64,000 nt of DNA from Neodothiora populina (taxonomy: Eukaryota), in contig NW_027191408.1 in the NCBI RefSeq assembly GCF_041146345.1, positions 496,001-560,000 on the forward strand, in the 5' to 3' direction. Made by a program: the position numbers and the translations under genes. Below, piece after piece: positions 10,936 to 50,187 of the stretch; position 1 is the first letter of the stretch, and the number at the start of each line of letters is the position of its first letter. The notes beneath the pieces were generated by a model. It was given only the letters and a program-made list of their open reading frames with translations. It was not told the DNA's origin and did not search any database.

Positions 10936-13900
10936 TTACCGCCTCTCCACGAGCAAGAGATGCATGGCCGCATAACCCAGCAGCAAAAACGCACCGCAAA
11001 ACACTGCCAGTCCCACAGCATCCTGTGTGAGAGCGAGGACGTTGAAGCCGAAGCTCGACAGGATTGCTGATCCAGGGACTTCAATGTCTAGACCGTACTT
11101 CTTGTCGATCAAAGACAGGTAGCGGACTTCGTTGACGATGAGACCTTCGAAGCCGTAGTGGAAAATAGATAGCTAGTGATATAGTTAGTGTTTGAAATGG
11201 AAAGGACGGTTAAAAGACTATCTACTTACTGTCTGCAGCCACCTCAGAGCCTTGGGGATGGTTTCGTGGTTCAGCAAGAAGCCGCCAAAGAGAAGTGAAA
11301 ATAGCATTACTAATACACCGACGAGATTTGCGACGCCCGGGTTGCGAATGACAATACCAATGCAGAGACATACGGTGGCGGCCGCGAGATTGAATAGAAC
11401 AATGAAGAGCATGAATTTGCCGAATTCAGGGCCTGTAGGTAGAAGTCCCGTCATGGGATAGACGATACACCCAGTGATAATCGGCGGAAGCAGGCGCAGG
11501 GGCACAATATCGAAGATGATCTTGCTGATGTAGTATGAGATGGGATAGTAGTAGCCTTTGGCGCGCTCGCGAGTGAAAAGCAAACGCTCAGGAGCGAAGG
11601 CTGTCAGAGAGGTCAGAGACGAAAAGCCGAACAGAGCCAAAAGGAAAAAGAAGAAACCGAGACGGTTCTGGAAGCCCTTGAGATCGTCGGTGAGCCCGTA
11701 GAACAGCCAGCCCAGGAACACAGCAAGCAGTATAGCAATAGCATAGTGAGTGAGCATCAGTTGGGGATTGCGATACAGATTGCGCCAGGTCCTCTTGCTC
11801 AAAATCAAGGTCTGACCGATGACACCCGTCTTGCGGTATCCTCGCATCGTACCGAGGTGGACATCGCCGTTGGCGGCACCGTTCGCGTGGCCGTTAGCCT
11901 GACTAGCATCATCGACTGCACCGTGGATATCCTGTGACAACGCCTCTGCAACATCTGACTCGGCAAAACTTGCAATGAGAGTGTCAAGATCCGTGCCAGT
12001 GGAGCCCGCTGGAGGAGGTGGAAGCTGGTGAGGATCGTCGAGGATTTGAGGTGGAGGTGCACCTTGCTGCTTAGATAGCTTCAGCCATTGTTGCGTTGTC
12101 TCGTAGTTGTTCTCAACAGAGGAGGCGTCAGAGCGTATGGTACTAGGTCCTTGCGATTGCTTCCTGGTGAATAGCTGCCTCTCTTGTTGTTGTCTCACAG
12201 AGCTTTTACGGCTGCTCTTTGGTCGCAAGAGTGAGTCGGAGGTGTAAGAACCTGGTTCGAAGCTTGCCACACTCGGCACCGACTTCACTGCTATCGTGCT
12301 GCTAGCCCTCGTCTGCGTGCCATCGTCAAGCGCGAAGATGGAGCTATCTTCGGGGATCTGTGGATGGACGGTACTCGCATGCATTGTCAGATCAACCAGG
12401 TAATCGGCGATGTTGAAACCAGGGGGGCACGGGTAGCCAAGGTTGTCGAAATAGGTCTGGCAGCTGGAGAAGGGACCCGAGTAGACAAGTCTACCCTTGG
12501 CCAGCAAGACCAGTTGGTCGAACAGAGCTACAATGTTGGAGCGAGGTTGATGAATAGTGAAGACCACGGTTCGGTTGTACGTCTTGCATAGGTTGACCAG
12601 GCATTCGATCACGTTGAAAGCATTGAAGGCATCGAGGCCACTTGTTGGCTCATCTAGAAACAGGATACTGGGGCTTGTGACCAATTCGCAGGCGATACCA
12701 ACGCGACGCTTCTCGCCACCGGATATGCCTCTGCCATTGCCTTCTTCTGAGCCGATGATCTGATCGCGTATGTGATAGATGCCGAGCTGACGTTCGACAT
12801 CGTCCACCCTCTGGGATTTGGCGGCATAGCTCATATCTCTGGGAAGTCGCAGCAGTGCGCTGTCCACGATGGTTTCGTGTACAGTCAGGGTGGGCAGCAT
12901 AGTGTCTTCTTGGTCAACAAAGCCAATAACGCTCCGGAAATCATCGTCTGAGATTTTTTCGCCGTTGACGTAGAAGCTACCGCTAGCAGTACCACGTTTG
13001 TTCTTTCTGGCGAGGATATCGAGGAATGTTGTTTTACCTGCGCCCGATGCACCCATGATAGCCATCAGTTGTCCGGGATGGACAGCACCCGCAATACCGT
13101 TGAGGATTTGTTTGCCCTTGAGATTGTAGGATAGATTCTCAAAGTAGAGGGCGGCCGGTTTGTGGTCTGCCAGCAACTGGGCACTCTCCTCTTCCTCGTC
13201 GTCAGACAGATGAATGGGTCCGTGTCCGGTGGCAGATCTCCTTGCGAAAATCCATACCAGGACGATCATGGCGACAACGAACAAGGCGCAGCCAGCGATG
13301 ACACTAGCGATCAGAGGAGTGTTTATTTTCTTGACCGGTCTCTCGTATCCAGGAACATCGGTCTTGTAGAGGCACTCTCCGGAGTGACAATTCAGCAGAA
13401 TGCTCTCATCGCCAAAAACACTGGAGATGAGTTCGTTCATGGCAGGCTCGAGGAACTTGCTACCGTCTTGCGCGCTGCCGCCGTCCGTGTGGATGGAGCT
13501 GAATTGTGCCGGACCCTTGATGCTTTCCTCCAGGAATTCGCTGATGTCGATGGAGCCATCTTCACCACAGAGCATACGATCGGGAATGCAGCGACACTTG
13601 ATGTTCTCACACTTGTAGCTGGTGGTGTTCCTGGTGTCTGTGGCGGTGGCGGTCCAGTCACACGTGTCCAGCGCGCAGTAGAAGGACTCTTTCTGGTCAA
13701 CCCAAAACTGGAAATTGCACTCTTCTCTCTCGGCGTGACAGGAGAAGGTGGCTTGCGGTTTCTTCTCTTTCAGCGTATCCAGGATCTTGCGATTGGTGAT
13801 GTCGCAGATCTGGTAGTTTTCCTTGACCACGAGACCTTCTCTGTAACAGACGCCGTCTTGACCGTCGGGCATCATGGCGTTGCACGCATCGTTGGTCTTG

Positions 13901-14277
13901 CAGACGTTGCAGTTTATGCCTTCCCAGCCCTCTTTGCAATCGCAATCGTGGCCCTGTCGAGGGAGGCGATTGCTGCCGTCGGCGAGCGAGCCACAGAGCG
14001 GTTCGCTGCAGTCCTCGCCACCAAAGCCAGGAGGACAGCGACATTTGCCCGAGGACTGGGTGCAGTTCGCATACTGATGACAGACAAAGTCGTCGAGGTT
14101 ACAGTTGAAGCAGGGCGGGCAGTCTGCGGGTCGGTCGTTGTAGATGCTGAAGAGGTCCGGGTCTTGCGAGTAGAGCTCGTTGGACGTCGTGTAGCCGTTC
14201 ATCTTGACCGATGCGGTCGCAGGAAGCGCACATGCGAGCAGCGGCGCAGCGTAGGCAAGCCATGACCGGCGATGCAT
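10936..14277 (-). CDS. ADP1: ABCG half-transporter with N-terminal EGF-like Cys-rich domain (ADP1-type); intron 11173-11229
   Basis: Signal peptide, EGF-like Cys repeats, Walker A GASGAGKT, signature ISGGEKRR, Walker [13 protein letters not shown]-terminal TMD. Last exon [15 protein letters not shown]...LLVERR* ends at 10936. Confidence 0.93.
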
Positions 14278-15037
14278 GGCTGTTGGTCAGATGTGATGGA
14301 GCAGAAACTTGGCCGCCAACGAGAAGCGATGGGAGGCTGGAAGTGGACAAGTAGCTAAGGTAGTTGCGCAACGACTGTACACGTCCGTTATCGCATGCGC
14401 CGACAGCCCAAAAAGGCAGGAACGGCAGAGGCAGGTACAGTAAGAAAAACCAGGACAACGCAGTGGCAATCAGATGCTTGCGCCGCGCATGTAGTCCTAG
14501 GACGAGATAGAGACAGAAAATAACAAGAGAAAGACTTACTGCCTGGAGTGAACGCAGGTGGATCATGTCTCGAGGTGTCGCTGTACGGAACAGTACTGTA
14601 CAGTAATTACAGTAGGGAAGGTGCACAACTGTACGGGGAAGCTCGTGATGCCGACTGCCCGATCTGGTCATCCCTCGTCATCAGTGCCTTATCCAGCGAA
14701 AGTAGGTGGGTTCTCCGTCATGCACGGCCCCGATACCTCACCGTCACGCCGTTGCACGGACGTTTTGGCTTAGTCCGCTCCTCGTGGCTGGGGCTTGGCA
14801 ATACCCAGCTCTCCCCGCAAAACCTGTCTCCCTCGGCTTTACGCTTTGTGCTTCGTTTGAGACTCTGATGTCGAGTAATGTGCTGCATCATGCAACTGAG
14901 ACGTTGGATAATGATAATGTGACTCTCGTAACAGTTGCAACTCGTAGTACAGTACAGTACAGTACAATACCGTACCTATGGTGATTACACGGGCACTGCA
15001 GAAGGCAAGTTCTCCTGAGAAGAGGCCATGTCTATGT

Positions 15038-18656: not shown

Positions 18657-21600
18657 TTAATTACTTCCACGAGCCCTCAATCTCCTCCCACCTGCTGCGG
18701 GAGCGTTCTCTCTCCCCTCTGCGGTTCCAGCGAAGGTGTTGCGGGTCGTCCTCGTCATAGGAAGCTTGCTGCCCGCATTTTCCGGTGCTGCCATCGTGTG
18801 GGCTCTCTTGAGCGTCTTTGGGGGCATCGCGTCGACCTGCTCTACACTTTCAGGCGCAGGAAGAGAGTTCGATGTGATGTTGACGTCGATTTCCCGCAGT
18901 CCAGGGAGGTTCTGCGGTAGACTGGCCGGGCGACCGCGCTCTGCAGAGGTTTCTTCGGCGGTGCTGTCGGGAGAGTCGGTATATACGACTCCTTTGCTCG
19001 GGGAGCTCTGAATCTTTCGCGGAGAAGCTGATGAAACTGGGCGATCATTGTCGTCTGTGGCCGGCTGTTCTTGGTCCAACAGCGCGTCGTGGGATGCTGT
19101 TCTAGGCAGAGTGGATGGGTAGTCGTAGGTCGTCTTCGTAGGTGTTTGACCTGTGGACTGGTATTCTGCCAGCTCACTTGCTTTTGTCTCGTTGTGCAGA
19201 GCTCTCAGGAGTGCTCTGATCTCACCCTCGTTGCCGAGTTCGGGGAAGGTCACCGCGAGTGCTGCAGCGCGTTCTTCCATGTCTGTCGAGAGCGACTGGG
19301 TACGGGTGTAGCTGGTGTCCATGTGTGCGCCGACGCTCTTGTAGCTTTCCTGCACGTTCGACGAGAGCTGTGCAAGCGAGGTCGTATGCGCTTCGTGATG
19401 CGTCTCGTTTTGTTGGCGCACTCTGGCGACAATCTCGTCGAGTGAAGAAAGCTGTGTGCTGAGGTGGACCATTTGCTTGTCGACGATTCCAACAGTCTCG
19501 ACATGCACTGCTTCTGTTGTACTCTTGATCTTCTCGCTAGTGCCGTTCGCGAATCCCCAATCACCCTTGATCTTCATCTTTATATGCTCTCTCGACTGTA
19601 TACACGAGTCGACAAGACTCTGTGTTTTGGCATGCAGTGCGTCTGCCTCGCCATCGTAAGACTGGCGGGAAACAGCGTACTCATCTTCGGACGTCTTGAT
19701 GCGCTTAGCGGCATGAGATATTTGTTCCGCAAGACGCTTCTCTTGGGCTTCCGCCGTCGTGGTGATGAGGCCGGTGATTTGTGCCAGCAATTCGTCTCTT
19801 TCTTTCACTGCGCGGCTGCGCTCTTCCTCCATGGCTTGTTCTAGTGCTTGATGCGAGCCCTGACCTGCTTCGACGAAAGTGGAATTTGCGGCAGATATTT
19901 GCGCGCGCAAACGAGCGGCTTCCGTCTGCTGCTCACTGAGCTGCTTGACAACATCATCAAAAATGGATTTGAATTCTTTTCCGAGACCGGCGTACGATTT
20001 ATGGAGCTGGTTGTGGAAGTTCTCGAGTTCGCCGGCAATGCCTGCGGTTATACGCTGCGCCGCCGTGGACAGATCTTTCATGCCCGCACCGACGTTCTGC
20101 TGAACGTCTTCTCGCAGAGTCTTGATTTCCTCGAGCACTTGATTCATATCGTCTCGAGACTTTGCTGTTTGCACATTCACCTCGGAAGACGAAAGCTGAA
20201 AGGCATCTGATTTCTCCTGAAGGAAGACCTGCGAAGCCTGGAGCTCCGAGAGCTCTGACTCGACGAATGATTGCATTCTCGTCGACATGTTCTGCAGCAG
20301 TTGCTCCTGCTTCTGACGTAGGCTCTCGATGCGTGCGTCCACTGAATCGGTTGTGTCTAGCACACGGTCTTTCGAAGAGGTCCAATGGATGCGATTCAGT
20401 GAATGTAGATCAGATCTCCTGTGCAATTTCGCGTGCAGGCCTGAGATATCTCCAGTTGTTTTGTCGAGAGTTGTAAGAAGCTTTCCTCCGATATCCGCGA
20501 GCTGTGATTCGGTGCGTTGATGAGCTTTTCGCAGGGTGGTTTCGTCGGCGAGGTTGCGCTTGGTACGAGCCAGGACAATCTCGGTCTTCTCGAGCAGACT
20601 CTTTGTTCCGTCTAGCATCAGCTTGGCCTGCTCATTTTCTCTCTTCAATCCAGTGAAGCTAGTGTTGAGGATGTGTAATTCCTGGACCTTGTTGCGAAGA
20701 TTGTTTTCTACGGTCTCGATCTTGGCTTTCTGCTCATCGGCCAGAATGCGCCGCGATTCACTCTCTGTCATGATTTCCTCGTAGTTTTCCTGGGTGAGAT
20801 AGACACCGTTACGCTGACGGGTAGCAATGAGCTCACTCTTCAGCTTCTCAATTTCTGCCGTGAATTCTTTGAGGAGGGTCTTCTTGGAGACCAACTGGTT
20901 GACCTGTGGCTTATTGCGGATGTTCTTCGCACGGAAAGCGTAATCAAGGGTAGAAATCGTCTCTTCCAGATTGCTCTTCGCAGGAGATAGGGTGGCAATG
21001 ATACAGGTCTTGGTCCTACCTCCCAGCGAATCTTGCAGCAAGCGTGTGAGTTTCGATTCGCGGTATGGGATATGAGAGCCCTTTTCGACCAGGGCATTGA
21101 TGACACGGCCGAGAGTGAGCAAGCTCTTGTTGATAAGACCAGCCTCGGCGGCACGTTTGTTCTCAGCACCACTGCGCTGGATGTTCTCACTTCCGGCAAG
21201 ATCGACCAAGTTGAGTTTTCCAGCACAGATGTAGTCTTCGCCTGTGTCTGATGTGCGCTTCATCAACACAGTAATGGTGAAGACGGTATGACTGCGGGAA
21301 CTAAGGTCGTTGCATTTGGTCGCGGCAACTTGACGTTTGATGGAGCCATTCTTGAGCAGTTCGAGACCCTTGGAGGCATTCTTGATGTGGGACTCCTCCA
21401 TTCCTTGGACGAGGGTAGTAGTCTGGCCTTTTTTGCTGTTGTCGTCGTAGATCTTAAGCTTCACGTTGTCGTCTGCTGCCAAGAGATCGCGAAGTTCTTC
21501 GTTGTAGAGTTCAATAAAGGAGCATTTGACCACGACTTCTTGTTCCTCATCGCCGATCTTGTGAAAGAGCGAGTGAAGTACTCGAGGTATGATACCGGCG

Positions 21601-22043
21601 TTATCCGGCAAAGGTTGCATATCAGAGATGTCGCCAGACATGGTATATGTTTTGCCGGTGCCGGTCTGGCCATAGGCGAAGATGGTGCAGTTGAATCCTC
21701 CGAGTACCTTGGGAATCACGGATCAGCAGCGCACACGGAATGTAGAGAATTCGATGCATACCTCGTCCAGTATGGGTTCGACGACATCCTCGAAGATCAT
21801 GGTCTGATCAGCAGCAGGCGAAAAGACTCGATCAAAATTGTATATCTTGTTACTGAGAGCATTCGGCCCCATGGAAAGCTCGAGTTTGGTTCCTTTGACG
21901 CCGTCGGCAGACACTGACGACGCCGCTGTTCTCGCGTACTTCACGATCGTTGCGACCTCTACATCGCACTACGACATTGATGTTGGTCTCTTCCTCGTGT
22001 TCGAAATCTCTTTCCTTTCGCTTGACTCCGTTGCTGCTGCTGC

Positions 22044-23218: not shown

Positions 23219-24940
23219 ATGCCTCTCGCCTCTCTTGCTCTGCGTCCTGGCCAGTCCCTCGACTTCATGCGTATGTATTGAGGAATCGACATCATCCCCC
23301 CTTGACATACTAACGTCCCAGCAGAGCTGGGCGCCTCTATCCAGGAAATATGCACCGAGTTGAGACAGCAGTCACGCACCTACCGAAAGCTGGACCTCTC
23401 CTTCTCCGCCGACAACCCCTTGGACAGTCCGGTCGTCGTCGATCTCCCTGACAACGGCATTCGATTGCGCTTTGATGGCCCAGACCAGCGCCTGCGTCTT
23501 ATAGAAGTCTTGGACTTCCATCGCTCCAACCTCACCTATAAGAACGAAGGTCTGATCCCAAACCTGGAGACTGCTCTTCACAGCCCAAATCGAGCCAGGA
23601 GCACTTTGATGTACCGGCGTGTCTACCAGCTCTTTGGTCCCTCCTACCCAGGCGACTTCCTACCCTCCAGCGACAAGTCGGGCCTTGGTACTTATGTGCT
23701 GTCTTACCCGGGCATCGCCTTTTCCTTTCCTCTCCAGACTCTGGCCTGGTCACCCAAGGTCGATCATGCCACCATGCTCTCCAATTCCGCTGCACCTGTG
23801 ACATCGTTGGCTATCTTCGAGGGCAACTCCTGGCGTGAAGGTCGAAAGGATCTCTTCACACGCAAGCCTGCCAATCCTCGGTCTTCGAGTCTTGCTGCTG
23901 CCACTGACGAGATAGAACATGTCAATATCCATGGCGCCGGCAGCGTCGAAATGCAACGACGGTCGGGTTCACGATTCTGGCTTATACTCGGTCAAACCAC
24001 TCCACAAGACCTCGTGACTGAGCTTGGTCCCCCAGACTCGATATTCAAACGTCCCGCGCACGGCGAATCACCTCCCCAGAAAGCAGCCGATGCCATGTCC
24101 AGGGGCAGAGGAAGACGCTCTTCGGCAATGAGAGTGCCCAGCTCCTACGGCTCTGCGCGATCGTCTAGGTCGACTCCGTCCAGCCTTTCCTCTAATAACA
24201 CGGATACCTACGCGACCACCGATTTCGAGGACGATGATGACAGTGATACTATACATGGCGGAGAGACAGAAGGCGGCATACAAGAACATTACTATTGTTA
24301 TTTCTCACATGGCTTCGACATCCTGCTTGGCTCTCCTGCCACTGTGTCTCCCTTGCCAGGACAGGCATCAGCTCTTCCAGAGCAACAAGTCTTGACGAGT
24401 TCCGAATCACACAAGGTAGCGACGAGGATAGTCTTGCACGGCAACATACCAGGGAGTTATCCTTTCAATCGGCATCGACGGTCACGCTGGTCGCTGATTC
24501 GTGATGTCTATCCAGCCTCCAGCGACGGCGCCGAGATTGGCTCGGAGAGTAGATTTCCCTGGTTTCACAAGCAACTTGTTGGGGCATTCCAGGACGTATG
24601 GCCCGAGAAGGACATGTCTCAAGGCATGGTAATAGTGCGCAATTGGACCGGACGAGATGATGACAGCGATAGTCCATCCAACTCCGCCATCTGGATTGGC
24701 GGGCAGATGGACGACATCTCGAGCGGGCATTCGAGTGGCAATTCGCATGGTTTGGACTTTGATGGCTTGGATGACTTGGATGATGAGGAGTGGGATGCGG
24801 TGGAACCGATCGGGGACGCACCGCCTAAGAAGCGAGGTGGCGAGGATCGCTGGCTGCGGAACACCAAGCTCTACAAGTTCCCGGGACTCATGTTTGAAGT
24901 CATGGAGAACGGGGCCATCAGCGCCTTGACCGTCTATTGA
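23219..24940 (+). CDS. UPF0183 / PHAF1 (phagophore assembly factor 1)-like protein; intron 23271-23324 (tandem CAGCAG acceptor)
   Basis: Spliced start MPLASLALRPGQSLDFMQLGAS. Motifs NGIRLRFDGPDQRLRLIEVLDF, FGPSYPG, YVLSYPGIAFSF, TTPQDLVTELGPP, GNIPGSYPFNRHRR, FPGLMFEVMENG. Confidence 0.88.
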
Positions 24941-29960: not shown

Positions 29961-31236
29961 CTAAGCCCATTTACCCAGCACAGCCATGAGACCAGCACCA
30001 GCGCACATGGTGACAAACGCCGCCATGACAGTCTTGATGCTGGCGCGCTGCATGTAATTGGAGAACATGAACTCGTGCGCCATGAGCTCGACCAGACCGG
30101 TATAAATCAAGATGCCGGCGCTGACGCTGTCGAAGACGCCGTTGACGATCAGCGTCGTCTGGCTGCCCGGCGGGTATGATTGGCGCACGCCAAGGCCGAT
30201 GGCGATGGCGATGGGCGTGCTGATTCCGTAGCCGATCGCGAGGAAGTAAGGCGTCCATTTCTTAGATTTCGGCCATGGTACCGATGCGAGACGGGATCCC
30301 AGACCGAGTCCTTCGAAGGTCTGGTGGAACACGAGGACGACGTACAGAGTCGGGAACTCGGAGCCTGCGACGGCCAGGGTGAGGCCGACAAAGACGGAGT
30401 GGAAGATGACGCCGAACTCCAGGATGAAAATCGCAGTCAATTGCGCGCTGTACGACTCCGGGGAAATGTGCCCGTGACCCTGGTGCTCCTCGCCTTGCTG
30501 GTTCTCCCAGTCTGAGTCCACATCCTCGGCGTCGACGTGCTTTCTGGAGTGGCTCAAATGGTCGTCACCCATTACATGAGGATTCGTCGGGCAAGACGGA
30601 GAAGCAGTCGGGTTCATTTCGTACTCTGGCTGTGCCACAGCGGCTTCCTCATCCGTGTGCTTTTCACCGTGGGCGTGAGCAGCAGGCTTACTGATCTCTG
30701 CTTCTCCTCCCTCACTCTCGACATCGTCGCCGTGACTGTGGCCGAACTTTGCATAGCGCATGACCATCAGCTCGACGAAGAACAACGAAAACACAGTCAT
30801 GAGAGCGATGCCCTCGACCCATGAGTACTCTGTGATCGGACCAGTCAAGCACGGATTCGTCAGAGCCTCATTCGCCGGTGCCAGAAGATGGATGAACGCT
30901 GTGGCGATGATCACACCCGAGCCAAAGAACTTTGCAATAAAGAAAGCCCATTCCGGCACTCCGAGTCCTCGGTGTCGGCCAGCAAAGATTGGGAACCAAG
31001 CGCCTGAAACATCCATGTTAGTTTGTTATATTCTCATCGGGACTCAATCTGGTCTTACCGAGTGATGATCCGACTAAGATGACAAAGACGGCCGAAATTC
31101 GCACTCCCATGCGTCCATCGTATTCGTTACTGGTATCACAATGTCCAGGAGTACCTATGAGATCGTCCTCTGTGTTGGTCTCCTCAGTAGCTTGCCGTAC
31201 CACATGGTAAGCCAATTGTGTCGCGAGGTCGGCCAT
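29961..31236 (-). CDS. ZIP-family zinc transporter (Zrt2/ZrfB-like); intron 31004-31058
   Basis: KFFGSGVIIATAFIHLL, His-rich loop, LEFGVIFHSVFVGLTL, FHQTFEGLGLG, MAVLGKWA end. Confidence 0.95.
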
Positions 31237-34127: not shown

Positions 34128-37100
34128 TCAGCTTTTGCGTCCCGTAGCGATCAGTCTGACTCGCAACTCCCTGACCGCGCCCTCCCAGCCGTCTCCGCGC
34201 TCCCCACAGCGACGAGCAAGGAAGCCCTGCATGTTATGTTCGTTGTACTGCTCTCCGTACACGACTTTGCCCTGGACGCCGATATGCGTGCCGACTTCGA
34301 AGCCGCCGTCGTCGAACGTGACGATCGCGGCCGAGACCTCGAAGCTCAGTCGCACTTTGGTCTGCACTTTGGGCAGAAGCACGTCGACTTGGACGCCGAG
34401 TCTTTCATCGGAAAGAATCGCGACTGAGACGGGGTGTTCGACGCGTAGACGGCGAATCGCGTCGGTGATCTTGTTGGTAACGTCCCAGCCTGTACTCACA
34501 AAGTGTAGCAGGGCTTTGATGCTCGTGCTGCGTTGCTCGAGGCATTGGAGCTGTGCGCGCATGAGTTGCAGGAAGAAGCGTGTTTCGGTGGGCAGAGCTG
34601 CTGTGTCGCTGCCGCCAACATAGGTCAGAGAGATTGGTTGGTTCTCTAGCTTGTATGGTTGCTTGTTAGAGCCTGGGATCAAGAAGGCCCCGGAGTCAAA
34701 GTAAAGAGCGATGGTTGAGCGGTATGTCATGGTGAGGGTCGAAGAACTCGCCGACGTTATAAACCATCCTGAGGCGGCTTCTAATTTCGCTACTGATGCT
34801 GCACAAATTGTTAGTCTTCCAGGCGCCATGTGCAAGACGAGAACGAGAAAATTACCCTTCAAATCCGCGACCTCGTCGATCGTCCAGCCGCGGCAAGACT
34901 CCTTCACTCGTTCGGCTTCTCTGATCGCCGCCAAACACTCCGTTTGTCCATCAGTGTACCCCTCAATCAAGTCGTCCTGTTCTCTCAGTTGTTCCTGCAG
35001 AGTGGCAAGCATACGCTTACGCTCCTCAATGTCGTCTTTGAGGCTGACCAGGCGCTCTCTCGACGCGCCGAGCTCGACCTTGTCCTCTCGGGATGTCGCC
35101 GCTGCGGCGTCCTCCAGCTCGCCAGCCTCAGTGCTGAGCTTCTCGTGTTGTGCAAGCAGATTGGGAAGCAAGCTATCAAGGAGCTCGTTACGCTCGCTCA
35201 GAACGCGTTCGTCGTTTGTCAGGCCCGTCTTTATACCTTTCAGACCTTCCTCGAGTCCGTCAAGCAGCTTGCCACGCCAGTCGTACCAGATCTCCTTGCT
35301 TCCGAAACGAGCATTCGTTTTGATGCTGCGCATGTGGACGTCGAGCTCTGCTTTGCGCTGAGCATCTCCATTTACATAGGCAGATATAAGCGGCGGTGAT
35401 TCGGCGTAGACATCCTTTTCTAGCGTCTTCACGAATGACTTGCCCTCAGAGATGTAGCGTTTGAGTTCACGACAAGAATGCTGGAACAGATCAAGCATTG
35501 GCATGGTGCACGCGCCTGCGACTGCAGCACTCTCCAGCTCTATGTCGTCTCCGTGCTTTCCCTCATCCTCATTGCCAGATGCCTCTCTGCTCGGCGTAGG
35601 TGCAATAGTGAATCTACGCTTCGTTGGTAGAGCGAGGTCCATGAATTTGATGCCTGCCATATCCAGGAACTCGTTCAGCTTCACCTTTGGAGCTTCCTTG
35701 TTGGTGCTAGACACCGCGAAAAGCTCTCTAGCAACCTGCTGTCCGAGATCAGCCACTGCAGCCTGAGGCATGAGTTGCGGTGTCTTGGACTTGGGCGTAA
35801 GTCCCTTTCTAGGAGAGACTGCTCTCTTGACCGGAGACTTCATCGGAGTCATGCCTCTGAGACGTCTGAGCGGTGTCGTGCCAGTGTCTTTCCTGGGAGT
35901 GGACAACAATCTCATGGAGTTCGTGAATGTCCGCGAACGATCTGCCGATACACCCTGAGGGGTGAGGACAATGCTGTCTGGTTCAGGCGCTTGTTGCGGG
36001 GTCATCATCGCTGTTGCAGGGGATGCCGGAGCGACATCGAGGTTTGCAGCTGGGATTCTTGGTATACTCTGCATCGCCTGTGGTGAAGCAAGCTGCTGAG
36101 CGGGTGAGTTTCGAGATTGTTGAGGGGTCATCGAATTTGTGTCTGGTGACGATTGTTGAGCTACTGCTGCTTGTTGGGTGACTTGAGGCGCCGGCTCTGA
36201 GGGCGTTGCTGGCGTTTCGATGGGTGATCGTTCCAGCTGTTGTTGCACCACAGGCGATGCAGAACGAAGTACATCCATGTCCACCTCGGCAGGGCTTCCT
36301 AACGCAGCGCGCAGAGGAGATCCAGCTTCCGAAACTGTATGAGAATGGTGAGATACGGTGGATACTGCCTGGCCAGCATTTGGCAAAGTCGGATAGACGA
36401 TTTCTTCTGCATGGGCAACGAGGGTCTTCTGCTCGCTTGGAGGGGAGAAACTTTGTGTGAGTTCTTCAGCTGGCAATGTCGTGGGCGGCGCTTCAGGTGT
36501 CAATGAGGCGACGTCCGAAGCTGCAGTGTAGGTAGCTAATGGACTCTTACGTGAGTGCTCTGCCTTACCGGCGTCAGAGCTACGCAGAGCTGATGCTGGA
36601 CTCCTGGATGTAGCTTCGGAGATCGATGCAGCGAAAGAGTCCTCACGGTCAGGTGTCTTCGAAGCCAGACGCAGACTCTTGCGAGGCGACTGGTTGTTCT
36701 TCCGGTGTGAGGCAGGACTTTGACGGCCTTTGGCAGGGCTCTTGCGAGGCGATGCGGCACTCTTCCTCGCCGAGCTCGTCCTGGATCCAGCCGAGTCCTT
36801 GACGGCAGAACCGTGAAGTTGGTTCTCGAAAATTGGAGTAAGAAGCTTTTTGGCTGATTGGTCTTCCGCCTCGCGGAAGTGGCCATCACGGTTGGGGGTT
36901 GTTGGCACTTCGGTCTTTGCAGGGGAGAGCCCATCTTTCGGAGTCGTCGGCCTGCTTACTTCAGTCGCAAGATTCTGCACATTGATGCCACCAACAACCG
37001 CAGTAAAGTCCATAGACATGTTTTCATTGCCTTTTCCTGGGGTTTCTTGCTCAGTAGTCGAGGCGGCATCGGATCTGTGAATGCCTCCAATAGCCGTGGT

Positions 37101-38981
37101 GAACTCCATAGTCTGATCATCATGAGTCGAAGACATGGCAGAGGAGCGCCTGCTGCGTAGACTTGTACGTCGCTTGGCTGGCGAGGCTTTGGCTTGAATT
37201 CCTCCAATTGCCACAGTAAAGTCCATGGTCGCATCACCAAGAGACAATCGCTGTGCGGAGGAACGTCTGCGCTTTGCACTGACCTGGGCCACTGTGCGTC
37301 TTTGCGGATGAGCAGTAGCGCTGGCCGAAGATGTCTCGTCTTCTATAGTCGAGAGCCGCCTCTTCAAGATTTTTTGGGTTTCTGGGCTCTTGTCCGTAGT
37401 GTTCTGTATGATCTTCCCAATAGCCTGTGTAAACTCCATGGTCTGGTCGTCAAAGGACTGTGTAGGCTCGTGTGCTTTCGGAGGACTCAATATGCCACCG
37501 ACTGCACGCGTCATGTCCATACTCACGTCGTCATCACTAGCATCCGCATCGATTTGCTGCAGACGGCCGGGTTGCTGCTGAGGATTTGGGAGGATGCCTC
37601 CGACAGCACAAGTCATGTCCATGTCCATGGTCATGTCATTGTCTCCGAGCTCCGTTGGTCGTGGAGAGTCTTGGTAGTCAGTATTATTGGTGGACAAGAT
37701 GCGACCCAAAGAACGAGTGAAATCCATGCTCATATCGTTAGTATCAGGCTCGGTATCTTGGCCCACGGTCGACGGTACGCCTTGAGGTTTGCGATGGGAA
37801 TATGCATTTCTAAAGGCAGGTGAGAAGGGGTTGATGTTTTCCTGGTCCTGAACCGCGATGATGTTCTTCGCCATGGGAGGGGGACCGTAGTTTTGCTGAG
37901 CCCAAGGCTTGAATTGGTGATCGACTTCTTGGGTAACCATTTCCATGGACATGTCGCCGTTTTCATCGACGTCCTCTTCATCATCGTAATACTCTCCAGC
38001 TCGTTCGTCGTAGTCGATGCCTCGCGTACCCGCCATCTCCGATGCCTGCCTAAGACGCTGTGTCAAGCTGGAGTCTGTACTGTCTGTGTCTGCTGATTGT
38101 AGCGATTGCACAGTGTTGTTGTTGTCGTGATTGGTGTTGTCGTCATCATCATCATCATCATCGAGACTCATGCCTGTGCTCTCTCCGTCCAGGTCGGAGT
38201 CGTATTCTCCGTCGTCCTCGTCTTCTTCTCCATCTTCGGCATCATCGCCCTCCACCTCGCTGCTTCCATCAATAATACTACTGCCACTCACAGGACTAGA
38301 AGAGAATTCGTCCTCGGGATTGTTGAAGTTCATGGGTGGAATGACAGAGCTGCGCCTGTGTTTCTTTTGATGGGCGTCGCGCTGATGCTCTGGCGAAGCG
38401 GGCAGATCTTCATCATCGTCGGCCTGCTCTGGCGGTGTAGAGGGCGGATCCGAAGCCTGCTCCCAACTGTGTCCGTCCGGAGTCATGGCAGAAAAGGCAC
38501 TTGCATTAGATGCCGAGGAGGCGCGTCGACTGTGCTCAGATGAGGCCAACGAGGAAGTTGTCGCGTCCCGCATATATTCAATGACATCCCAGGTGTGCAG
38601 CGTAGCCTCGGGCGCGAACGAGACTCGACGGTTGGCGAGAGACTTACGCCGCGCCTCCTTCCGTTTCAGTTCCTCATCTCGGGAAGGAAGGATGCCCTTT
38701 GGGGGCAACTGGATGACCTGCGTCACTGCCGACTATTGATGAAGCCAGAGTCAAAACATGTACAAGTGATGATCCGAAAGTCCTCTGCTTACCCGCCTGC
38801 GCCCTTTTACGGGTGATGTTCTACGCGTTGCCTCGAGTTCCTCAGGTCCAATACTTCGACTACGCGCTTTTGACTTCTTGCTGGCCTTGGGCGGCGATGT
38901 TGATTTGTTTGCCGCGGGCATCTTTAGCGGTGAGAGATCGAATGTTGATCGCACCGGCGACATGTTCTCCTTGTCTTCCAT
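34128..38981 (-). CDS. spc7: Kinetochore scaffold Spc7/Spc105/KNL1; introns 38733-38792 and 34799-34855
   Basis: KGIL and RRVSFAPEATLHTW PP1-docking motifs; MELT-like repeats (MDFT, MDMT, MEFT); C-terminal Spc7 domain (FLDMAGIKFM, SCRELKRYISEG, WYDWR). Confidence 0.93.
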
Positions 38982-41432: not shown

Positions 41433-44400
41433 ATGGCTCTTCACATTGACTTGACAGTTGATGAAGACGTAAGACTCGCCGACAAATCAGCCATTCCTCG
41501 ACCCTCGAAATCCAAGCAGAAACACTCGCAGTTATCTCGCGACCTGGCGGTTGATATCAAGCATCAGTTGTCTCGACGTTCTTTATCTGGTCAGAGTTCC
41601 CGTGCGGATCTGTTAGGCACCCGTGGCGCCCCGACCGTGATCAGTGACAGCGATTCTGTTTCCATCGCCACATCTCATGGGACTTTTCGCGCTCCCGTGG
41701 CATTCTCGAGCGCTGGTAGCCCTTCCAGCCACACTACGACGGTGACCCAATCTGTCGACCTACAAAAGAACAGCGGAGAAGCCAAAGTCGGTGACTCGAT
41801 CGTAAATGGTGGTCTCGGAATGTCTAGCGTACACTCAGGAAAGAAGATCCAAGGGCTTATAAAGGGCCCATTTTCTGATTCATCTGATGCATCGGCAATG
41901 AAAGCAAGTGCTTTTACTGATGGTTCTGTACGGAAGCGAAAATTCCAGGACGATGCTTTCGCCAAGTCTGACAGCCAAAAGAAGGCGAGATTAGTTGAAG
42001 ACTCACTGAGCAATCAAACGACCACCTCGCAGCCATCTCATCAGGTAAAACTTTCCAGTCTCGTGGCCACCGTTATGTGCCTGAATGCTGACTGATACTA
42101 ATGCAATAGTCTCTGGAAGGAAGATCTAGAGGCAACTCGGCATCGATAAATAGACCTGGTAGGGGCCACGAAGTGCATACTGTACACAACAAACCGGCCG
42201 CATGTTCGTCAGCAGCCCCATCCACCTCGTCCCGGCCAGCTAAAGCTCACCCTGCGAATGGCGTCCTCAATTCGGAACCAAGAGTGCTACCGACCCCTGT
42301 TAATCAAGCGGGTCGTCCACAATTGCAAGGAGATATTACTTCCCAAAGTGCCGATGCGTCAACTTCGGCATCAGTAAAGACTTCAAATAGTGTCCAACCA
42401 AATCCGAGCTCTAGAACAGAGCTTGACAACATCTTGGAGCGCGTACTTGGAAGACGAGCTAATTCTTGGAAGCGCGATGAACCTGCATATTGGAACTATG
42501 TCAAAGACCTTTATCTAACCTGGTCAACAGCCAAGAGGAATGGGTCTAAAGCATCACTGGAATCCCTGGAGAACGTTGTTAAATCTATATGCAAGGACGA
42601 CGAAGATTCTCGGGTTGATTATCCTCCGAATAGTCCTTTATCAGAACCACTCGAGGAATCCACGGAATGGGATTCTGGGACAACTCCGAAGAACAAAAAG
42701 GGATCGTCTAATATTCCACGAGCAGCGCATGAACCCACTCACAAGTTGACTCAGGAATCCAAGGAAAATCCAGGCCAGGACCACAGCCGGCGGCTCGACA
42801 GCAACAGCCACCAGCCATCTAAGATAGACAGCAACGAGGGTGCATTACAAGTGCATTCAGCCAACGCGAGGCAAACGCCGACGTCTCCAGAACGCACAGT
42901 CGTTGTAAAAGATTACAACGAAATTGGTCGCGACAAGAACAAGGCTATATCACCAAAGAAACCAAAAGCCATGACATTTTCACATTCTAAGACCGCTACT
43001 GCAAATCACAATCCAGATGATAATACTAGAAGACATCCAGTTGCGCACGACCATACAAATAAGGCTACTGATGTTGCCGCACCAATATGTGCGATAAGTG
43101 CTAGTTCGGAACCGATCAGAACATTTGGGCAACCGTCGAAGCCGGAAGTGAGGGCTTCAAAAGCCCAGACAGAGACCACTGCAGAGACTCATGATTCCAT
43201 ACAGCAACAGCTTCGAGAGAACGCCGCGAGAGAAAAGAAGGTCTCTCTTGCTGAAGCTCAGTCAATCATGAAAAATCACTTGGCAGAAATGCACAGGGAT
43301 CATGAGTACAAGGTCCATGCCGAGATGCGCCGAGCCCATATGCATACGTTTCCAACATTCAATACTCCCGCCACAGACGTCCCACTTACCACTCGATATG
43401 GTATGACGTGCGTCGCGAAGTCTGTTTCACCATTCCAGGGCATGGAAGCAATCGAGAGGAGGAATGCATCTGGTAAAGACAAGATGATCAAGATCGAAGC
43501 AAGAACGTACAAGAATAATAGAACCACGTCGAAGATCACGTTGGGTTGCGAGGTGTCTACTATAGATCCCCATAAACCAGAAGTGCATGGCTATACTGGT
43601 GACATGCCAAGGTATACCCACTACGTCAGCATTAACCGTAATGTCTTGGGACAAAATACGAAGCAAATGCACGTTTGGCCATACTTTGGCTCGGACGTGG
43701 AGTCAGACGAAACTTGGGAGGCACAAGTCCAAGACGACCTTCGAAAACGTTTTGATGTCGATGTAGAGCAATGGCCTCGCAAGATTTATCGTGCTCAGCA
43801 GGTGCAGGTCTACATGCCTTATGTCGAGTCTTTCCTTGATGAGATCGGTTGCGGCATGTCAGATATACTGTATTACCTGCTCGAGCCTGATGAAGACGGC
43901 ATTCGGACGGCGTCGAAAGACTGCTTAAGCCGCAATAAGGTGTGTGAGGAGGATCTCGATCGTTCAAGCACTAGATGGGTCAAAGTTTTCTCCAAGCTTC
44001 AAAGACCATCATCAGACATGCTGCGAAAGGCTGCAATTGCCTGTACAGTATTTTCTCGTGCGTTGCAACACTTCAGCAAGAGCACAGACCACTTGACCAT
44101 GTGGCATATCGCTCGGAAGCACCAGGCTGCGCATTTGTCAGATGAGACGCAAGAACCTGACATTGACCCCTATAGCTTTGCCTGTCGGATATGTCATCTA
44201 CATGACTGTCCCTATCATGGTGAAGTGCTCGATGTCGATAACTCTTCCGATCTTTACGAAGACGATTTGGATGCAGACTACCCGCCCAACATCAACCACA
44301 AAAAGCGGGTCGCGTTACCAACAAGCGCTTATGACGATGGAGATTATGAAGCCGAAACTCGATTTCCCAAACGAGGCTTGGATTGGTGGCTGAGAAAAAG

Positions 44401-45901
44401 TCACTCCGGGAATCACGCTAAACGAGGACCTTTCTACCCCTGCTCTCATCCCGGCCTGACCTGCGATGAAGCACAGTGTCAATGTTTCCGTGACAAGGTG
44501 CACTGTGAGAAAGCGTGTGCATGCCCCATGGGCTGTAATCGACGCTTTCGCGGCTGTTCATGCAAGGAAAACAGCCTGAAGAGGTGTTTGCAGGATGACA
44601 GGTGTGAGTGCTTCAGATTGAACCGAGAATGCGACCCTGATGTGTGTGGAGAATGCGGAGTCGACATCGTCTTGGATCGCGAGCGTTATAACGACGATGA
44701 GCTCCTAAGCACGTGTTGTAGGAATGCAGCCATACAGCATGGCAGACCGAAGCGTACTGTGCTCGGTGCCAGTAAGGTTCATGGCTTCGGCTTGTTTGCA
44801 GGAGAGGCCATCAAAGCACATGATTTCCTCGGCGAATATGTTGGCGAAATCATTCCAGAAAGAGAAAGCGAGCGAAGGGGAATCATATACGAGAAGCAGA
44901 AATTGAGCTATGTCTTCTTGCTCAACAAAGACCAAGAGCTCGACAGCCAACATTACGGAAACAAGATTCGCTTCATCAACCACGCTGCTATGGGAGATGG
45001 ACTGAGGAACGTGTACCCAAAGGTCGTGTTCTGTAACATGGCTCATCGTATCGGCATGTTCGCCCTAAAACCGATTGCAGCCGGTGAAGAGTTGTTCTTC
45101 AATTACGGCAGGCAGTACCACAAGCGTTTGTTCAATGGTCGGCCTGACGAGTCAAGCGACGACGTACAATCGAAGACGAAGACACTGAAGTCCAGATCTG
45201 TTCCCTTAAGAGACATCGCTGAAGACACCAGCGAAGCAGATGAGCAAAGACCAGGGCGATCTCGAACGCAGAAAGTGCCCAAAGGGTCTCGCGTCGGAAG
45301 CACGAGCAAAGCAAGATCAAAAGTGAGATCGAAAGTACGATCCAGAGTACGGTCAGAAGTGAGGCCCGAAGTGAAGCCCGAAGTGAAGTCCAAAGTGAGA
45401 TCGACCATGATCGCCTCAGGCACGACCAAGTCTGCCGCGAGAAAGTCCCAGAACCAAGACGGACTGCACGTGACGACGTCTGGCGTCGAGGGGGCGCAGC
45501 CCATCTTGGCTCGCAGCAAAGACACTTCAGACCTACCGCGCACTAAGCCACGCCCGCAAAAGGGAAAAGCATACCTAACAGACAATGAGGGTGACGACGA
45601 CTACAACGACATCTACAATTTCCCGTGGGAGAGAGATGATCTTCCCTCGCGCCGACATGCTGATGAATCACCATTGTTTGTCAACGACGGAGACGACACA
45701 AGCGACTACGGTGCCGGCCAGGAAGAAGTGGCAGACAGTGAAGGCGACGACGGCAGCGATGACGTCCCGAGACGAAGTTCCAGGTCTACGACCAGAGCAA
45801 GTCGTCCGAGAACAAGTCGTTCGAAGACGAGCCGGTCGAGGGCGAGTCAGTCGAGAGTCTGGCTCTCGAGAGCGAGTCACTCGAGAGCCAGACGGCCGTA
45901 G
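41433..45901 (+). CDS. kmt6: H3K27 methyltransferase EZH2/KMT6/SET-7 (PRC2 catalytic subunit); intron 42045-42109
   Basis: CRICHLHDCPYH, CXC domain (PCSHPG...CEKACAC...RECDPDVCGEC), SET domain (GFGLF, LGEYVGE, GNKIRFINH, GEELFFNYG). Confidence 0.92.
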
Positions 45902-49153: not shown

Positions 49154-50187
49154 ATGGACTCGAAGAACTACATCGAGAAAGTTGCCATCGTTGGAGTAAG
49201 CAGACTTAAATTCACACACATGCATAGACTCATTGGCTAACCTCAAATTTCTAGGCTGGGGGTAACTGTGGAAGTTACATAGCAGAAGCTCTGTTGAAGA
49301 CCAAGAAGCACAATGTTTCAGCTGTTACTCGAGCCGACAGTACCAACAAGCTGCCCGAAGGCGTGAATAGGATTGAAGTCGACTACAATGATCAAAGCTC
49401 TCTCGTACACGCCCTGCAAGGTCAGGACGCTCTGATCATTACAATGAGCGTAACAGCACAACCTGGTACAGAGGCGAAGCTCATCGATGCTGCTGCTGAA
49501 GCTGGAGTGCCATGGATATTACCTAACGAGTGGGGCGTAGACTCTACCAACACTTCTCAAAGCGAGGACATCTTGATTGCTACGCCGAAGCGTCAGCTAC
49601 GTAAACAGATACTTGATCTGGGAGTGAGTTCCTTCATCGGGGTATCTACTGGCTTCTGGTACGAATGGAGCCTCGCAGTTCCCATCGCTTTTGGATTCGA
49701 CTTCAAAGCTCGTGAAGTGACTCTTTACGATGAGGGCGACACTCGTATCTCCATATCTACATGGCCGCAAGTCGGTCGTGCGGCCGCCAGTCTATTGAGC
49801 CTGAAGATCCACCCAGACGATGAATCCGACAACTCCCCATGCCTCGAGAAGTTCAAGAATGACTTCATCTATGTCAATTCTTTCACCGTCAGTCAGAAGG
49901 AACTTCTAGAGTCTGCTCTACGTGTCACTGGGACCAGCCTGCAAGACTGGAACGTGAAGAAGGAACCCGTCAAGGCTCGTTATGCCGATGGCCTGAAGGA
50001 ATTTCAAGGTGGAGATAGGATGGGCTTTGGCAAGCTATTGTATGCTCGAGTCTTCTATCCTGATGACAGTGGCAATACAGAAAAGACAAGAGGCCTTGAG
50101 AACAAATTGTTGGGATTGCCCAAGGAAGATATGGACGAGTATACGCGACTTGCTATCGAAAGATCGAAGACTGTGCAATGGGGTTAG
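49154..50187 (+). CDS. NmrA/isoflavone-reductase-like oxidoreductase (CipA-like); intron 49196-49254
   Basis: Rossmann motif KVAIVGAGGNCG across the splice junction; LIDAAAEAGVPWILPNEWG, GFWYEWSL, STWPQVGRA. Confidence 0.92.

Follow-up and report, generated by a model that had tools for sequence, protein, structure and literature searches.

The stretch analysed here is a 64,000-nt segment of contig NW_027191408.1 from the ascomycete Neodothiora populina, which is placed in the Dothideales (Dothioraceae); we call this whole stretch the window and count all coordinates from its first letter. It encodes a predicted KMT6/EZH2-type histone methyltransferase, the catalytic subunit of PRC2 (Polycomb repressive complex 2), whose long C-terminal tail contains the octapeptide TKSAARKS, a close likeness of the sequence around lysine 27 of histone H3 (H3K27). 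Comparison with orthologues indicates that the ARKS within this peptide is a conserved, lysine-centred short linear motif in a disordered PRC2 catalytic-subunit tail, and we weigh below whether it could serve the enzyme as a mimic of its own substrate. The gene and the elements of its product are placed as follows.

41433-45901, + strand: predicted KMT6/EZH2-type histone methyltransferase gene, 2 exons, 1467 amino acids, from the open reading frame and a GT..AG intron
41433-42044, + strand: exon 1, start ATG at 41433, 612 nt
42045-42109, + strand: intron, 65 nt, GT..AG (GTAAA...AATAG), whose excision yields exactly the annotated 1467-residue protein
42110-45901, + strand: exon 2 including the stop TAG, a long open frame of 1263 codons
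44552-44659, + strand: CXC (pre-SET) Cys-rich domain, Pfam PF18264 preSET_CXC, E 2.1e-07, P0001 residues 814-849
44783-45109, + strand: SET catalytic domain, Pfam PF00856, E 8.6e-19, P0001 residues 891-999
44969-44986, + strand: RFINHA, inside SET
45095-45109, + strand: FFNYG, end of SET, residues 1200-1204
45110-45898, + strand: C-terminal tail, 263 amino acids rich in S, R, D and K, predicted disordered
45317-45403, + strand: tandem repeat, about 7 copies of [K/R/E]-V-[R/K]-[S/P]; Tandem Repeats Finder, period 12, at 45315-45360 and 45356-45398
45425-45448, + strand: TKSAARKS, H3K27-like motif, residues 1310-1317, by direct translation
45764-45784, + strand: VPRRSSR, second conserved tail element, near the C-terminus, with an acidic block before it

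Support for the gene model comes from the open frame and from an identical public annotation, the spliced translation matching P0002 ('hypothetical protein AAFC00_002148 [Neodothiora populina]') letter for letter. The CXC domain is followed directly by SET, both with Pfam scores above the curated cut-offs, and the Cys columns of CXC are nearly invariant across 115 homologues. When the protein was compared with all solved structures, the top matches were Ezh2 of Chaetomium thermophilum (5kkl_B and 5bjs_B, E 3e-48 to 1e-47), followed by human EZH1 (E 7e-46) and EZH2 (E 7e-45), with the next SET family, SUV39H2, at 3e-14. Because it combines CXC and SET domains with Ezh2, EZH1 and EZH2 as its best structural relatives, we identify the 1467-residue protein as the N. 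populina orthologue of KMT6/EZH2, in keeping with the original prediction of an H3K27 methyltransferase; specificity for H3K27 would follow by homology. The N-terminal 800 residues have no Pfam match, and a weak second phmmer stretch there (P0001 499-715 against Ezh2 121-349) scored 7.6 bits, while the alignment consensus contains conserved blocks in this region that are common to the relatives. A 2022 review (PMC8788455) describes fungal KMT6 proteins as longer and mutually conserved outside CXC and SET.

The letters at 45422-45451 on the forward strand read ACG ACC AAG TCT GCC GCG AGA AAG TCC CAG, that is TTKSAARKSQ, preceded by GGC (G), so that the tail sequence first proposed, GTTKSAARKSQ, lies in the frame of the long open reading frame 42110-45901. 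The motif lysine is K1316 (codon AAG, 45443-45445), with R1315 at position -1. Aligned with residues 22-28 of H3 (TKAARKS), TKSAARKS matches at 7 of 7 positions with one inserted Ser, and its AARKS is an exact copy of H3 24-28. The peptide had been described as part of a post-SET tail, which is apt in the loose sense that it lies downstream of SET; it does not belong to the post-SET element itself, being 110 residues past the end of the SET domain within the 263-residue tail.

This tail appears to lack a fixed structure. In an AlphaFold2 model built from an 83-row alignment, the CXC-SET region had predicted local distance difference test (pLDDT) scores above 90, whereas the tail scored 37-55 and formed no secondary structure; means over 10-residue blocks were 61 and then 37-55 from about model residue 261, the last predicted helix spanning 256-262. 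The period-12 repeat sits directly upstream of TKSAARKS and occurs in N. populina only, leaving a gap in the alignment of the relatives' tails. A second in-frame repeat, of period 15 (45794-45888), encodes an extra R/S-rich C-terminal extension and is likewise missing from the relatives. Because both repeats are absent from relatives, we conclude that the N. populina tail is expanding by microsatellite-like slippage, with ARK retained. On the opposite strand, an open frame of 165 codons (45103-45600, -) overlaps the tail-coding region; its likeliest origin is the repetitive, GC-balanced sequence of the coding strand.

A four-residue word such as ARKS, found post hoc in a single tail rich in K, R and S, is weak evidence if taken alone. 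Over 20,000 shuffles that preserved the composition of the N. populina tail, ARKS appeared in 2.2% and AARKS in 0.11%, and the analytic expectation for TK(x)AARKS in this tail was 1.5e-5. What places the motif above chance is its conservation in orthologues. We collected homologues by a word-indexed search (127 proteins at E <= 1e-10, 120 of them considered) and by searching 1.84 billion cluster representatives exhaustively with HMMER, where 544 passed E <= 1e-30 and the best 150 were considered. An alignment of the closest group, 30 sequences with 26 unique tails and including Aureobasidium species, placed the pattern [S/A]-A-[R/K/I]-K-[S/T/M/H] in one column in every sequence. A reduced alignment free of near-duplicates held 17 sequences (N. 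populina, P0003-P0006, P0122, P0151, P0199, P0123 and eight of 25 Aureobasidium-type sequences). These tails could otherwise hardly be aligned: beyond the third residue after SET, the only columns identical in 17 of 17 were Ala(-2) and the Lys; position +1 was Ser or Thr in 14, with Met in A. pullulans and His in P0003. As the Lys is better kept than the Ser/Thr beside it, these alignments point to a function directed at the lysine rather than to a phosphosite.

Broadening the comparison, we surveyed the best 150 of the 544 HMMER matches; the C-terminus of SET could be recognised in 148, and in 139 of these the tail was 60 residues or longer. ARK was present in 55 of the 139 tails (17.3 +/- 3.9 in 500 composition-preserving shuffles, maximum 32), ARK[ST] in 26 (2.8 +/- 1.7, maximum 10) and ARK[STA] in 42 (4.4 +/- 2.0, maximum 12). 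Permuted tripeptides of the same composition were found in 18 (AKR), 19 (KRA), 27 (KAR) and 28 (RAK) tails; RKA reached 46, partly since ARKA contains it. To place these tails by descent, a FastTree phylogeny was inferred from 153 CXC-SET cores (the 139 representatives and 15 extra sequences, one dropped for a short core), in which N. populina and Aureobasidium fall in a 15-row clade with local support 90. The four clades compared were these.

Dothideales-like clade, 15 rows: ARK[ST] in 12; shuffle mean 0.39, maximum 3 of 300 shuffles
Pleosporales clade, 13 rows (with Lojkania, Lophiotrema, Massariosphaeria, Byssothecium, Plenodomus lingam and Bipolaris maydis): ARK[ST] in 7; shuffle mean 0.39
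Mycosphaerellales/Cladosporiales-like clade, 49 rows (with Hortaea werneckii and Cladosporium halotolerans): ARK[ST] in 6 against 0.68 in shuffles; ARK[STA] in 20 against 1.30
Clade with Exophiala oligosperma, 35 rows: ARK[ST] in 3; shuffle mean 0.91; not enriched

The clade labels are extrapolated from these few named members, and kinship inflates the counts of tails and clades alike, so that the argument is one of conservation amid divergence, not of independent events. Absence of the motif from orthologues, which the original prediction had held would mark a chance match, is not what we observed: the A-R-K core is kept, the Lys is invariant in the close group, and the motif is enriched in three Dothideomycete clades.

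Two forms of the element can be told apart by position. Type I lies 41-54 residues past SET, behind an acidic run, with the consensus G-N-x-R-A-(R)-K-[A/S/T/V]; its column in the 49-row clade holds ARK in 24 sequences (often ARKAP), RAxK in 8, RAK in 9 and other residues in 8, and the +1 position is mostly Ala or Val. Type II, to which the N. populina motif belongs, lies 78-132 residues past SET with the consensus [S/A]-A-R-K-[S/T]-x-[D/E/Q], as in AARKSESKD, AARKSDQSS, SSARKSEDQS and SSARKTEDRS. The Hortaea tail has both types, and in Aureobasidium type II takes the form ARKT. Aureobasidium tails further contain a second copy 21-58 residues downstream of their ARK[T/M], K-[A/F/P]-A-[M/I/R/V]-K-S-[A/T/V]-(P), with variants such as LKAAMKSA and LKAAIKSAP and, in A. 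pullulans, TTKFARKSAPSS. This copy resembles H3 K23-P30 more closely than does the motif of N. populina; it is found in P0007-P0012, P0014-P0031, P0056 and P0078-P0088, its Lys being Asn in P0012, and the window has no equivalent. An ARKSAP occurs towards the N-terminus of some Pleosporales proteins, as in GTKARKSAPSAA of Byssothecium and LTARKSAPTS of Corynespora, and in the H3.1 K27M peptide of PDB entry 5kkl_B the mutated Lys is likewise followed by SAP. An upstream look-alike in the N. populina protein, HIARKH (44105-44122, residue 872; HIARKS in P0003-P0006), was rejected as a motif of the tail type, being in a conserved, probably folded region outside the tail.

Other elements share these tails. 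The pattern P-R-R-S-x-R(-x-R), represented in N. populina by VPRRSSR, is kept in 13-16 of 16 relatives depending on the residue and is the sole other strongly kept tail element; with its acidic run it is possibly an arginine-rich anchor for the nucleosome or a partner. Within the first 40 residues after SET, the Mycosphaerellales-like clade has a conserved element [K]-K-S-A-P-H-V-R-N-x-N-L-V..F (for example in P0146, P0137 and P0167), whose start, A-K-K-S-A-P, recalls the H3K27 context; the N. populina equivalent is at about 45170-45215, where its group reads K-T-K-N-R-A-L-I..F. Many Pezizomycotina KMT6 tails also contain a strongly conserved GGAR[P/R/A]G[A/S]GR[K/P], often beside AT-hook-like strings of the RGRPRK type (carriers include P0035, P0013, P0053, P0055, P0057, P0077 and P0096). 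Neither this element nor AT-hooks were found in the N. populina tail (45110-45898), Aureobasidium is without GGARPGAGRKP, and no description of the element was found in the KMT6 and AT-hook literature searched. We considered whether the Dothideales ARKS might be a degenerate GGARPGAGRKP and rejected this, as some tails contain both as separate elements, at distances of 38 to about 120 residues in P0199, P0195 and P0210 and of 11 residues in P0137.

The genes around the methyltransferase are of ordinary housekeeping types, and we saw no link between them and the tail motif.

11221-14286, - strand: ABC-2/ABC-G type transporter
18660-21722, - strand: kinesin motor
23306-24937, + strand: PHAF1
29964-31025, - strand: ZIP zinc transporter
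34131-38732, - strand: Spc7/Knl1 kinetochore protein with MELT repeats
49255-50184, + strand: NmrA-like protein

The interpretation that we favour, tentatively and with a probability of roughly 45%, is that ARKS is a substrate mimic in cis, a site at which KMT6 would methylate itself with a regulatory role. Tethered some 110 residues from SET, the tail is long enough to fold back, so K1316 could enter the lysine channel as a pseudo-substrate in cis, or in trans within a dimer, and become automethylated. Unmethylated K1316 would then compete with H3 tails, whereas methylated K1316 would leave the active site, and the Arg at -1 would permit its reading by a methyl-lysine pocket such as that of EED. 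A tethered substrate mimic fits because the residues that make a PRC2 target (a small residue, Arg and Lys) are the ones conserved, because Lys is kept above Ser/Thr, and because the tail is flexible. The redundancy of the theme, seen in the second Aureobasidium copy and in the ARKSAP of some Pleosporales, also favours it. The arginine at -1, a feature said to be required of activators that bind EED, is present as R1315 and in 14 of the 17 aligned sequences.

Structure prediction bears on this reading. When the CXC-SET region (268 residues) was modelled together with a 43-residue piece of the tail, the interface score ipSAE was 0.35, 0.18 and 0.34 (median 0.34), the best of three controls scoring 0.00, in a calibration that covers neither peptides nor disordered chains. 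For this pair the runs agree in at least 1% of contacts and the partner has a pLDDT of at least 35. Of 78 solved complexes, 51 reach the mark that the pair passed, as do 2 of 108 mismatched pairs; scores of 0.60 or lower include only 5 of the 78 solved complexes and all 4 passing mismatches (of 180). The pass may also reflect memory of solved complexes of PRC2 with H3 peptides. We therefore read the prediction as weakly favouring a mimic.

Several observations weigh against self-methylation. Only A-R-K is conserved; the TK...S flank that makes the N. populina peptide so like H3 is not kept. In the reduced alignment Arg(-1) gives way to Lys in P0003 and P0151 and to Ile in P0006. The residues that follow the motif Lys (SQNQD, TEDRS, SESKD) are acidic or polar, unlike those of H3, and in the 49-row sister clade the element often reads RAKG or RATK, not RARK. 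In the AlphaFold2 single chain the motif had pLDDT below 50, not above its neighbours. The 35-row clade with Exophiala oligosperma showed no enrichment, and for that reason the motif does not appear to be a general requirement of fungal PRC2. As an internal control we took 99 N-terminal regions (40,896 residues) from the proteins surveyed. They hold ARK[ST] 10 times, where shuffles average 3.2, a density of 0.24 per 1000 residues, so basic disordered regions as such could account for some of the signal. In the tails of these control proteins the count was 17 against 2.1, or 0.89 per 1000 residues, and the tails are the main ARK[ST] site; the weaker N-terminal excess may mean either that the mimic theme extends beyond the tail or that basic disordered regions favour this word. 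Finally, the literature searched yielded no methylation, binding or activity data for a fungal KMT6 tail.

A more ambitious form of self-methylation, which we think rather improbable as a whole, would give Dothideomycete PRC2 a built-in starter resembling JARID2: H3K27 mimics in the tail, automethylated, would bind EED in cis or within a dimer. The mimics would be ARKS, ARKT together with KAAxKSAP in Aureobasidium, and RARKAP in Mycosphaerellales. If so, these fungi would possess a self-contained allosteric switch for de novo H3K27me3, JARID2 and PALI being absent from such organisms, and fungi and animals would have evolved PRC2 automethylation separately, at different sites of the protein.

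Other readings keep the lysine at the centre and take away KMT6 as its user. The site could be docked on or modified by a different writer, such as an H3K9 methyltransferase with a chromodomain reader of the HP1 kind; acetylation, ubiquitylation or sumoylation is another option; and so is the binding of a further PRC2 subunit or of the nucleosome. An invariant Lys and Ala would suit such a site, the A-R-K-[S/T] core is common to H3K9 and H3K27, the ARKT of Aureobasidium is the G9a motif (PMC2175347), and further tail elements (acidic blocks, PRRSxR, RN.xL..F) suggest several partners. The motif is, however, carried by the very enzyme whose substrate it copies and present there at very high local concentration, which makes self-methylation the simpler account, and both the AARKS of N. 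populina and the ARKSAP and KSAP copies elsewhere fit the context of K27, not that of K9; we regard another user of the lysine as unlikely, if well worth keeping in view. Should the Ser or Thr be what matters, R-K-[S/T] could instead be a target for basophilic kinases like Aurora or PKA, which phosphorylate H3S10 and H3S28. The pattern R-x-[S/T] suits Aurora-type kinases, and the Ser/Thr follows the Lys in 14 of 17 aligned sequences, N. populina included. That residue is nevertheless less constrained than Ala(-2) and the Lys, the latter kept in 17 of 17, being Met in A. pullulans, His in P0003 and mostly Ala or Val in the sister clade, and a kinase site accordingly seems to us quite improbable.

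Charge or chance might also produce such a word. The tails are rich in K and R, many relatives have AT-hooks of the RGRPRK type and GGARPGAGRKP, type I can read RRARKA with four basic residues in five, and ARK is mildly enriched in N-terminal regions as well; all of this would be expected of a generic basic patch serving as a nuclear localization signal or as a DNA or RNA contact like the nearby AT-hook-like elements, with no histone-mimic meaning. We doubt this strongly, since the copies in N. populina and Aureobasidium have only two adjacent basic residues, set between S-A-A or S-S-A and acidic or polar positions, a charge patch would not hold Ala(-2) invariant, and GGARPGAGRKP stands as a separate element beside ARKS in P0199, P0195 and P0137. 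Least probable of all is a chance resemblance devoid of function, in which unrelated ARK triplets of low-complexity tails were stacked by the aligner. MAFFT can indeed align short identical words in disordered regions, and ARKS turns up in the 2.2% of N. populina tail shuffles given above, but ARK[ST] occurs in 12 of 15 members of the Dothideales-like clade against 0.39 expected, composition-matched permutations are two to three times rarer, and the motifs lie 78-132 residues past SET amid the same flanking elements and agree further in an [S/A] that precedes the motif, a D/E/Q at +3 and an R some 8 residues past it.

Self-methylation of the tail, if it occurs, would extend a familiar principle, as automethylation and histone mimicry are established means of regulation for EZH2, G9a, SETDB1 and SUV39H in animals. 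For PRC2 the literature we searched treats automethylation as an animal feature. In keeping with the claim that the motif was undescribed, no automethylation or histone mimic of fungal PRC2 was found in the searchable literature (subscription literature lay outside the search), and the one fungal review that takes up PRC2 automethylation cites the human paper only. It is thus reasonable to regard the tail motif as a candidate histone-mimic or automethylation site in a new place and in a lineage without an earlier report. The native KMT6 tail has also stayed out of sight structurally, because all solved fungal Ezh2 chains (5kkl_B, 5bjs_B, 5vk3_B and 5wfc_B) stop about 30 residues past SET and then pass through a linker with a protease site, LVPRGS, into Suz12; a mimic borne on the tail would have escaped such work. 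The ARK[S/T] of Dothideales, Pleosporales and Mycosphaerellales-like tails suggests how fungal PRC2 might be switched on or restrained, and among the species concerned are studied ones (Plenodomus lingam, Bipolaris maydis, Hortaea werneckii, Aureobasidium pullulans). In these fungi H3K27me3 controls secondary-metabolite and effector genes. Were the idea of a mimic wrong, the motif would still be a conserved short linear motif in a chromatin enzyme.

The nearest precedent is human EZH2, which automethylates K510, K514 and K515 in cis on a flexible pseudo-substrate loop (PMC6771386), and whose K510me3 is reported to activate a second PRC2 through EED, Arg(-1) being said to be required of EED activators (PMC11980035). 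In both cases a Lys is carried on a flexible segment of the catalytic subunit, and K510, like the fungal Lys, is preceded by Arg(-1); the human loop, however, lies between SANT2 and CXC and the fungal motif 110 residues past SET, so the two are not homologous. At the site matching the human loop, just before CXC, N. populina reads WWLRKS (44384-44401). We rejected an automethylation loop of the human type there, as WWLRKS is found in N. populina only and relatives have WWMNE.. or WWFEN... According to Lee et al. (PMC6771381), PRC2 of C. thermophilum, the fungal complex used in crystallography, has no such loop, and automethylation may be newly evolved in PRC2.

The enzymes of H3K9 offer further parallels. 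G9a automethylates an ARKT motif and then binds HP1, its activity unchanged (PMC2175347); this copy of the enzyme's own histone target, A-R-K-T, lies outside the catalytic domain of G9a/GLP, and the Aureobasidium orthologues of KMT6 read ARKT in their tails. G9a differs in that it is an H3K9 enzyme whose site is N-terminal and whose reader is HP1. SETDB1 automethylates H3K9-like motifs (bioRxiv 10.1101/2025.10.22.683908), and Clr4/SUV39H has an autoregulatory loop (described for Clr4 in PMC6771381); there too a histone-like Lys on the enzyme regulates partner binding or occludes the active site, although these are again H3K9 enzymes, with sites in or beside the catalytic domain, not in a long C-terminal tail. 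Non-histone R-K sites such as JARID2 K116, trimethylated by PRC2, bind EED and stimulate the enzyme (PMC11980035); activators of this type are separate animal accessory proteins, whereas the fungal candidate site is within the catalytic subunit itself. The closest physical likeness was engineered: in the C. thermophilum fusion of Ezh2, an H3.1 K27M peptide and Suz12 (5kkl_B), TKAARMSAP was placed 40-50 residues after FFNYG, an artificial peptide, but on the same side of SET as the natural motif of N. populina.

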